DNA of 64,000 nucleotides from Octopus vulgaris (lineage: Eukaryota): the NCBI GenBank assembly GCA_951406725.2, contig OX597814.1, forward strand, positions 112,282,001-112,346,000, read 5' to 3'. Numbering within the stretch: position 1 is the first letter of the stretch; each line of letters starts with the position of its first letter. The position numbers and the translations under genes were made by a program. Positions 4,876 through 61,286 of the stretch are shown here, in pieces. A model generated the notes under the pieces. It did no database searches and was not told the origin of the DNA. It worked only from the letters and a program-made list of their open reading frames with translations.

Positions 4876-5280
4876 CTAGATTTTTAAACAAGGAATGGTT
4901 AAGGGGGTCCCCCGGAATAAAACAATAAGCAAAGAATCATTGGTTTAGAGCCGGGGTTTTCAACCATTTTTTTTTTATCTATGGACCCCTTTGATTAGTT
5001 TTATTCTAGTGGACCCTCATAGTCATTCAACAGTTAAAAACTAGTTTTATAGAAACTTCTTTTAAAATTGTTATTTTGTTTTTCACCCATTAACTTGTGT
5101 GGCTTGAAATATGTCAAATGTTAGAGAAAGAAACCTAGCTGTTTCTAGCAAAAACATACCCATATATACATCTAAAGCAGGGCTTCTCAACCACTTTTTG
5201 TTTCTTATCTATGGACGCCTTTGATTACTATTTTATTCTGGTGGACCCCCACAGCTATTCGAAGTTTTAAAACTATTTTA

Positions 5281-5825
5281 AAAATCACAAAACCCATTAG
5301 ATTCACTTCAACACTTCAATTTGTCAAACTATTTTTGTCGCTTTGAAACTGCAACCTGTTCTGACAAATTAGATTTAAATGTTGAAGTGAATCTAACGGT
5401 TCTCTGTGTGTTTAAGGCGGCGAGCTGGTTAAGGCGGCGAGCTGGTTAAGGCGGCGAGCTGGTTAAGGCGGCGAGCTGGTTAAGGCAGCGAGCTGGCAGA
5501 AACGTTAGCACGCCGGGCGAAATGCTTCGCGGCATTTCGTCTGCCGCTACGTTCTGAGTTCAAATTCCGCCGAGGTTGACTTTGCCTTTCATCCTTTCGG
5601 GGTCGGTTAAATAAGTACCAGTTACGCACTGGGGTCGATGTAATCGACTTAATCTGTCTGTCTGTCCTTGTTCGTCCCCTCTGTGTTTAGCCCCTTGTGG
5701 GTAGTAAAGAAATAGGTTCTCTGTGTGTTGTTAAATGGCTTATAAATACCTTCCGCGCTGCAATTGCTTTTGTTTCAGCACAGGATCTCAGATCAGGTCA
5801 CTTGTTATGCAAGTATATCTCCGTA
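5281..5825 (+). mobile_element. Fold-back PLE-like element (same family as 60522-60848) with a decayed hammerhead, split by a SINE
   Basis: Inverted arms ttagattcacttcaaca / tgttgaagtgaatctaa; same tail (..tatgcaagtayatctccgta) as the 60.5-kb copy. Confidence 0.75.
5413..5714 (+). mobile_element. SINE family C with a five-fold 17-bp head repeat
   Basis: (TTAAGGCGGCGAGCTGG)x5, B-box GAGTTCAAATTC, central GCCTTTCATCCTTTCGGGGTCG; 15-bp TSD GGTTCTCTGTGTGTT at 5398-5412 and 5715-5729. Confidence 0.92.
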
Positions 5826-12155: not shown

Positions 12156-12656
12156 AACAATTGAGGGTAAAATTAATTAATTAATCAATTTCACCAAGTG
12201 TTCAGTATGTAAAAGGACCATTTAAGGCGAATTCAAAATATTACATTATATAATTAGGGCTTAGTAAAATAAATTACTTTGCCACATACTGAACTTAGTA
12301 GAAATAGCAGCCAAAAAAAATTTTTCTTACCATTTCTACTACTTAAAGAAAATTTCTCCCAGATAATGTTTACTCCAGACAGCTCACGAAGGTTTGGGGG
12401 TAAATACAGAAAAATATCACAAGTACATAGATCGTTTGAGTACGTCAACGTTTCAAGATTAGCCAAATAAATCAGCATTTCTTTCGTCAGCTCAAAATTT
12501 CTTAATTTGGATTTGGAAACACTAAAAAGAAGGAACTTTACCTATCAGCGTACTTGTCGCTTCAGATGAACCACTCCAACTAAACAGTGTCAACAAATTC
12601 AAAATTTTGAATTTGTTCAGTATGTGGCAAAGTAATTTATTTTACTAAGCCCTAAT

Positions 12657-60462: not shown

Positions 60463-60521
60463 CAAGGAAATACTGGTCAGCTGAGTCTCGCCGGGTTTTC
60501 GGGTGGTTATTATTAATAAAC

Positions 60522-60848
60522 AATTGCTGCATGGAAGGTGTTTATAAGCCATTTAAGAAACACACAAAACCCGTTAGATTCACTTCAACATATAAATTTA
60601 ATTTGTCAAAATATTTTCGTCGCTTTGAGACCACGACCTGTTCACTGACAAAGCTTCGTGATGCAGCACGAAGCTTTGTCAGTGAACAGGTCGCGAAAAT
60701 ATTTTGACAAATTAAATTTATATGTTGAAGTGAATCTAACGGTTTTGTGTTTCTTAAATGGCTTATAAACACCTTCCACGCTGCAATTATTTTCGTTCCA
60801 GCACACGATCTTAGATCAAGTCACTCGCTATGCAAGTACATCTCCGTA
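60522..60848 (+). mobile_element. Fold-back PLE-like element with variant hammerheads
   Basis: Arms at about 60522-60660 / 60667-60790 with a 6-nt spacer and an about 58-nt tail; flanking direct repeat ATTATTAATAAAC at 60509-60521 and 60849-60861. Confidence 0.85.
60602..60652 (-). ncRNA. Type I hammerhead with a compensatory G3-C8 core (GUGAACA)
   Basis: UUUGUCA-GUGAACA-G-GUCGU(GGUCUCAAA)GCGAC-GAA-AAUAUU-U-UGACAAA: 7-bp stem I, 5-bp stem II, palindromic stem III. Confidence 0.7.
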
Positions 60849-61286
60849 ATTATTAATAAACTTTTTATTTTTTTAATTGACCGAGTGTTTTACGATTAAT
60901 TGAACCTTTTACTACGCGTATATACATACATACATACATGATTGTATGTATGTATGTATGTATGTATGTATGTATGTATGTTAAGGAGTAGATAAGATCT
61001 GGGGTACGTATGCTTCATAGCGAGCGGAACCTCGGAAATGGTAAATATCCAAGCGAGATGTATACCGCAGGCTACTCTTCAAGCCAAGGATATCTTGATT
61101 AAACGAAAGTTTACATCGTGTCAAGGACAATGTTAAATTATTTTCAGTTTATCGTACTTTTATACCAAGAAAAAAAAAAACAACCTTCCGTCTCAGTAAT
61201 CCACTATTGTCCCTGAAAGTTGATTTTTTTATATTTACTACAGATCACTTGAAGTTAACTTTTTCCTATACCTCGATCCCTGAATC

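Follow-up and report, generated by a model that had tools for sequence, protein, structure and literature searches.

Minimal type I hammerhead ribozymes of low activity have been described in the pLTRs of Penelope-like elements, with a core pair between positions 3 and 8 that is C3-G8 or, in a Schistosoma variant with about 1,300 matches, U3-A8 (Cervera and de la Pena, 2014, PMC4209133). Natural U3-A8 covariation of the core was also published by Perreault et al. (2011, PMC3088659). The swapped pair, G3-C8, has been made in the laboratory: the C3G/G8C double mutant partly rescues the hammerhead of the Anolis Poseidon element (PAc) and needs the protein (PMC11167929), a partial rescue by a 3-8 double mutant is also found in PMC8495972, and PMC3884650 contains a further laboratory G3-C8 variant. 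In PAc the C3G single mutant, equivalent to a G3·G8 mismatch, is inactive, and the hammerhead is dispensable for insertion in vitro (PMC11167929), yet hammerheads are nearly universal in Penelope elements. A natural G3-C8 hammerhead was not found in the literature searched (including PMC6765202 and PMC13282606), the coverage of which was incomplete and leaves priority uncertain.

The Octopus vulgaris motif described here carries the G3-C8 pair. It is a genuine natural variant, both old and abundant, of a motif already known, and the element in which it lies is likewise of a known kind. It resembles the hammerheads of PMC4209133 in its pLTR position, the additional nucleotide that separates position 9 from 10.1, the G10.1-C11.1 pair, the palindromic stem III, the thousands of dispersed truncated copies and the predicted dimer dependence; it differs from them in having G3-C8 where they have C3-G8 or U3-A8, in an extra nucleotide that is G and not the consensus H, and in a 7-bp stem I. 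Like the U3-A8 forms of PMC3088659 it is a natural Watson-Crick exchange at 3-8, although theirs is a double transition and the octopus one a double transversion. The likeness to PAc (PMC11167929) comprises the identical base swap in a Penelope hammerhead, a motif near the ORF start and a tail; however, the PAc swap is a laboratory mutant whereas the octopus swap is fixed in a natural family, and the PAc start codon lies in stem II whereas the putative one of the octopus family follows 55 nt after the cut site. Non-LTR retrozymes (bioRxiv 10.64898/2026.07.22.740005) are likewise animal repeats with a type I hammerhead that derives from Penelope, but they are head-to-tail tandem arrays of units that each carry a hammerhead, whereas the octopus copies belong to an element with an ORF and are scattered singly or as inverted pairs.

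The features of the locus are collected in Table 1, where positions are those of the window, that is, the whole analysed stretch of 64,000 nucleotides (GCA_951406725.2, contig OX597814.1, positions 112,282,001 to 112,346,000 of the forward strand). The left-arm motif has a stem I in which the two ends are joined (type I architecture), the core G3 U4 G5 A6 A7 C8 A9 followed by one extra G, a 5-bp stem II (four Watson-Crick pairs and a U·G) that begins with G10.1-C11.1, the bases G12 A13 A14, a stem III formed by the palindrome AAUAUU (A15.1-AUAU-U16.1), and U17. Thus U4 G5 A6, A9, G12 A13 A14, A15.1-U16.1, H17 and G10.1-C11.1 are all in place, but G3 and C8 stand where the literal CUGANGA has C3 and G8, and the motif is therefore classed as a hammerhead variant and not as a canonical member. 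The layout, with stems I and II predicted by RNAfold, confirms what the initial annotation had read from the letters, namely GUGAACA in both arms and complete helices in the left one; its cut position agrees with the hammerhead numbering, and the loss of most of stem II that it reported for the right arm corresponds to a deletion of 14 nt. U17 is not unusual, being carried by many of the sister motifs described below and by several published rows in the PMC4209133 supplement.

Table 1. Coordinates of the hammerhead motifs and of the insertions that carry them in the window
Feature	Position	Strand	Basis or remark
Complete left-arm hammerhead motif, minimal type I	60602..60652	-	layout, RNAfold, scanner
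Core G3 (60645) and C8 (60640), swapped Watson-Crick pair	60640..60645	-	
Predicted cleavage site after U17	60608..60609	-	hammerhead numbering
Right-arm hammerhead, G3-C8 core	60675..60711	+	14-nt deletion, most of stem II gone
Left arm, 5'-truncated pLTR with short 3' end	60522..60662	-	
Putative ORF start ATG in left arm	60552-60550	-	
Right arm, inverted pLTR with long 3' end	60663..60849	+	
Tail of right arm, ~55 nt	~60795-60849	+	
Putative ATG in right arm	60758-60760	+	
AT-rich direct repeat, left copy	60510..60521	+	likely target-site duplication, 8-12 bp
AT-rich direct repeat, right copy	60850..60861	+	
Older decayed inverted insertion, same family	5264..5795		other repeats interrupt at about 5416-5721
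Motif remnant in older decayed insertion	5320-5368	-	

A hammerhead scanner that left positions 3 and 8 free and required at least 11 bp in stems I and II together (the window motif has 12) found matches of comparable quality at a chance rate of 0.1 per 64 kb in 20 Markov controls; together with 5608 genomic matches to the family patterns against none for reversed-pattern controls, this argues that the motif is not fortuitous. The Rfam covariance models, applied in local scans, gave no hammerhead at E<=10 and only weak hairpin-type matches at the locus, and a whole-window scan had no hammerhead among the 150 rows listed of 552. It had been claimed that the family is invisible to CUGANGA searches; this is true, and searches with that core fixed miss families of thousands of copies, but Rfam misses a sister motif with a canonical core as well. 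A second hammerhead-like motif lies on the minus strand at 12435-12496 of the window, with a canonical C3-G8 core, 6 bp in stem I and a stem III that is palindromic.

Both arms together (60522-60849) are two retrotransposon ends in inverted arrangement, flanked by direct repeats of 8–12 bp, and the window holds just this short inverted fragment of the element, longer copies elsewhere in the genome carrying RT-like and GIY-YIG-like coding sequence upstream. The locus is a 275-nt near-perfect hairpin, and for a read-through RNA the predicted fold is a single long hairpin of -184 kcal/mol. As an inverted and truncated insertion the window copy is dead, and its motif would be hidden in the predicted hairpin of a read-through transcript. 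No host gene was evident among the ORFs of the window, three PLE proteins gave no tblastn match to it, and repeat finding in it was dominated by microsatellites. In the older decayed insertion C8 is kept, as had been noted, and two core bases and G12 are lost; since this copy belongs to the same family, it does not count as independent support.

The motif is a hammerhead-shaped RNA motif in the pLTR of a family of Penelope-like retroelements. Its 30 best matches in the genome are scattered and truncated at the 5' end, and many of them stand in inverted pairs or adjoin (TA)n; most genomic copies are single-armed. The parent ORF was traced by way of an acceptor-like sequence (371 matches), upstream of which a GIY-YIG-like reading frame was reached. 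In 11 of 30 endonuclease loci fetched with only 1.5 kb of flank, the endonuclease is followed on the same strand by the motif, with more such cases in longer fetches. Locus L102 has the order pLTR-RT-endonuclease-pLTR, and in this and other loci the pieces of a broken ORF stand in the order of a single frame with RT and C-terminal GIY-YIG. The Pfam match to GIY-YIG is weak (E=0.0023, below the gathering score) and the RT piece had no Pfam match; the latter piece contains a YVDD motif, has 61 relatives and is 56% identical to an Octopus vulgaris protein named RT-domain, which itself matches the genome at 99–100%. A C-terminal GIY-YIG-like domain after a short Cys linker is also drawn for Nematis (PMC8557442, Fig. 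S2), and that linker resembles the octopus one by eye alone. The pLTRs occur in partial tandem or inverted, with 5'-truncated copies, as expected for Penelope-like elements. Among 30 copies picked by a downstream pattern, 13 share one 3' end region and 17 another, about 55 nt apart, which matches the Penelope tail, which is ascribed to two RT start sites and has a published length of 30–40 nt (PMC11167929) as against about 55 nt in the octopus family. The first codons after the putative start codon look by eye like the N-terminus of the sister family. Pairs of matches 2.7–6 kb apart proved to be larger duplications or separate insertions and not full elements. A different Penelope endonuclease fragment, which adjoins one copy (L025), was discarded as the parent, its family being another one that has a motif of its own.

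Within the family, for which the matches count arms and not insertions, G3-C8 is present in 5159 of the 5608; 300 have G3 but not C8, and 149 lack G3. C3 was found in nine of 100 matches listed from these 149, none of the nine having G8, and G8 was counted by hand in 39 of 100 listed copies without C8, which amounts to roughly 2% of the family, so that the change to G8 is about nine times as frequent as the mirror change from G3 to C. Copies therefore decay independently at the two positions, as expected for insertions after landing. Such independent variation had been named as an observation that would speak against a compensatory swap; technically it occurs among the copies, but it is uninformative, being post-insertion decay. 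One family copy with C3-G8 (L206) was met in another search, which is about the chance expectation; this copy (L206:1350-1382) has an inverted partner arm with G3-C8. Contigs from four runs of organisms B to E had no other letter at >=4% at position 3 or 8. A diverged sister family, 66–72% identical over 86–226 nt in the seven of ten loci aligned, differs in N7, loop 2 and stem III and, when searched with both sites free, has G3-C8 in 14 of 17 motifs and C8 in all 17. G3-C8 has thus persisted across about 30% divergence.

The comparison between families is more telling. A young, intact sister family, whose RT is 56% identical and which is sister on the RT tree at 92/92, has C3-G8 in a closely similar stem context, and it has C9 in place of an A9 that its older relatives keep; a further 49 matches had a fully canonical core, in a search whose pattern fixed C3 and G8. 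The young Penelope family has 56 scored matches, many of them near-identical intact copies, and L151 (G000:C17:6331579-6336951) has a 1312-codon frame with a long Asn-rich insert. Among 32 metagenome loci, 21 of which reach the ORF end, the scanner found nine convincing motifs, five with C3-G8, four with U3-A8 and none with a mismatch; by eye, the four near-identical L126 and L128-L130 have C3-G8 without G12 and L131 has U3·G8 with C4, and seven loci showed no motif, several of them ending early. One of these sister motifs (L118, about 4973-5015) has its 15.1-16.1 pair inverted (U-A for A-U), and another (L114, about 2497) combines U3-A8 with C9. A further Penelope family (P0001; L034, L105 and L109), whose C-terminus is also GIY-YIG-like, has a hammerhead with U4 changed to C and an extra base before G12, and its relatives in L019 and L056 keep U4.

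An alignment of 22 rows has a Watson-Crick 3-8 pair in every row (13 CG, 5 GC, 4 UA), a result that is partly circular, as seven of the C3-G8 octopus rows came from the pattern fixing C3 and G8, that includes related rows and that leaves out L131, L126 and L128-L130. The stems covary as well, with 41 double-change cells against 11 in shuffles, a number inflated by related rows. The best RT tree (18 rows) requires four changes of the pair label, the least possible being two, and G3-C8 arises on it once and so counts as a single event. Given the C3-G8 of the sister family, the C3-G8 or U3-A8 of the homologues and the Watson-Crick pair in all rows, G3-C8 is in all likelihood derived, through a change of both bases in a motif that is homologous. 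The compensatory nature of the swap, which the initial annotation had proposed, is therefore supported by the covariation of the 3-8 pair between families and not by variation among copies, and the swap is likely to reflect selection to keep the core pair.

Taking the observed anatomy of the motif, its linkage to an ORF with RT and a GIY-YIG-like domain and the covariation of the 3-8 pair between families, the G3-C8 swap of the sister's C3-G8 was probably retained for re-establishing the core pair, and with it some slow, dimer- or protein-assisted self-cleavage. Master elements would transcribe a tandem pLTR-ORF-pLTR RNA, in which two motifs might pair through the AAUAUU palindrome or be helped to fold by the element's protein; a cut after U17, upstream of the putative start codon, would then trim tandem or read-through RNA. 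Such cleavage is likely to be helpful over long times and not needed per insertion, since most copies appear to derive from uncut RNA and templates with a mismatch have moved too. A bolder version, in which the octopus motif is the first known active natural G3-C8 hammerhead and its clade exchanged the core pair repeatedly between C-G, U-A and G-C via mobile mismatches, under selection for cleavage only in the long term, is possible but stands somewhat short of an even chance; if true, it would be a natural record of a ribozyme crossing an inactive valley.

One objection comes from copies with a mismatch. Six of 16 ORF-linked copies (L102, L106, L108, L109, L112 and L082, all on G000:C16) have G3·G8, three of them in both repeats, and since their flanks differ, a core predicted to be dead was mobile; they fall in a young group of 12 on a star-like tree that does not resolve them as a clade. 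A near-palindrome, TCA-N-TGA, surrounds position 3, where, as a speculation, G and C might be exchanged by a template switch. It is conceivable, if unlikely, that the motif is a relic in which both changes were fixed by drift, via a mobile G·G or such a flip, with no useful cleavage today. C9 in the young sister family fits this, as does the lack of a cleavage footprint: of the 30 copies used for end mapping, 25 reach beyond the cut and none begins there, and in raw RNA of organism B (three runs of a single study, of which about 6% was read; 1678, 1296 and 1232 reads matched) both strands are covered about equally and no position stands out as the start or end of many molecules, in libraries that may not show a cut. 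The absence of an effect of hammerhead mutants on insertion in vitro (PMC11167929) and the success of Naiad elements that lack canonical hammerheads (PMC8557442) point the same way. Against drift, every family-level motif found has a Watson-Crick 3-8 pair, in three types that require at least four label changes on the best tree; the stems covary too, and G3-C8 has outlasted a divergence of about 30%. The selection on catalysis that had been claimed for this locus is thus an inference backed by the covariation between families and weakened by the mobile G3·G8, the C9 of the sister and the missing footprint.

The motif could also owe its conservation to its fold instead of its cutting. It follows a splice-acceptor-like AG by about 20 nt and precedes the putative ATG by 55 nt, a position that would suit protein binding, translation or RNA packaging; the AG region (window ~60662-60665) is ~60 nt upstream of the cut, and 15 of the 30 sampled copies start there, 57–66 nt upstream of the cut, as against none at the cut itself, which suggests a transcript start or spliced 5' end at this place. 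No spliced junction was seen among the RNA reads of the three runs over the acceptor-like sequence. U17 and the short stem III also predict weak activity, and minimum-energy dimer folding did not yield the active dimer register, a result that is uninformative for a 6-nt palindrome. The 3-8 pair, on the other hand, belongs to the catalytically active hammerhead conformation, which is consistent with PMC8495972. Its covariation consequently points to catalysis, and a fold selected purely as structure is quite improbable. That the motif is a chance look-alike in some inverted repeat, for instance a MITE or a hairpin of the miRNA type, as the near-perfect hairpin of the locus and the hairpin-type Rfam matches might suggest, is refuted by its tie to the RT/endonuclease ORF and by the homologous canonical motifs of sister families, and is also opposed by the single-armed state of most copies, which leaves it with hardly any probability.

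Self-cleavage through a restored core pair therefore remains the preferred reading, and the clade offers matched natural forms (G3-C8, C3-G8, U3-A8, mobile G3·G8 and C9) with nearly the same stems, several of them in one genome, in which activity could be compared directly with evolutionary success. Many of the best endonuclease matches of the family cluster on contig C16. Two near-identical nested palindromic structures of ~4.3 kb (L031 and L032), built from the same element, lie 55 Mb apart on C1.
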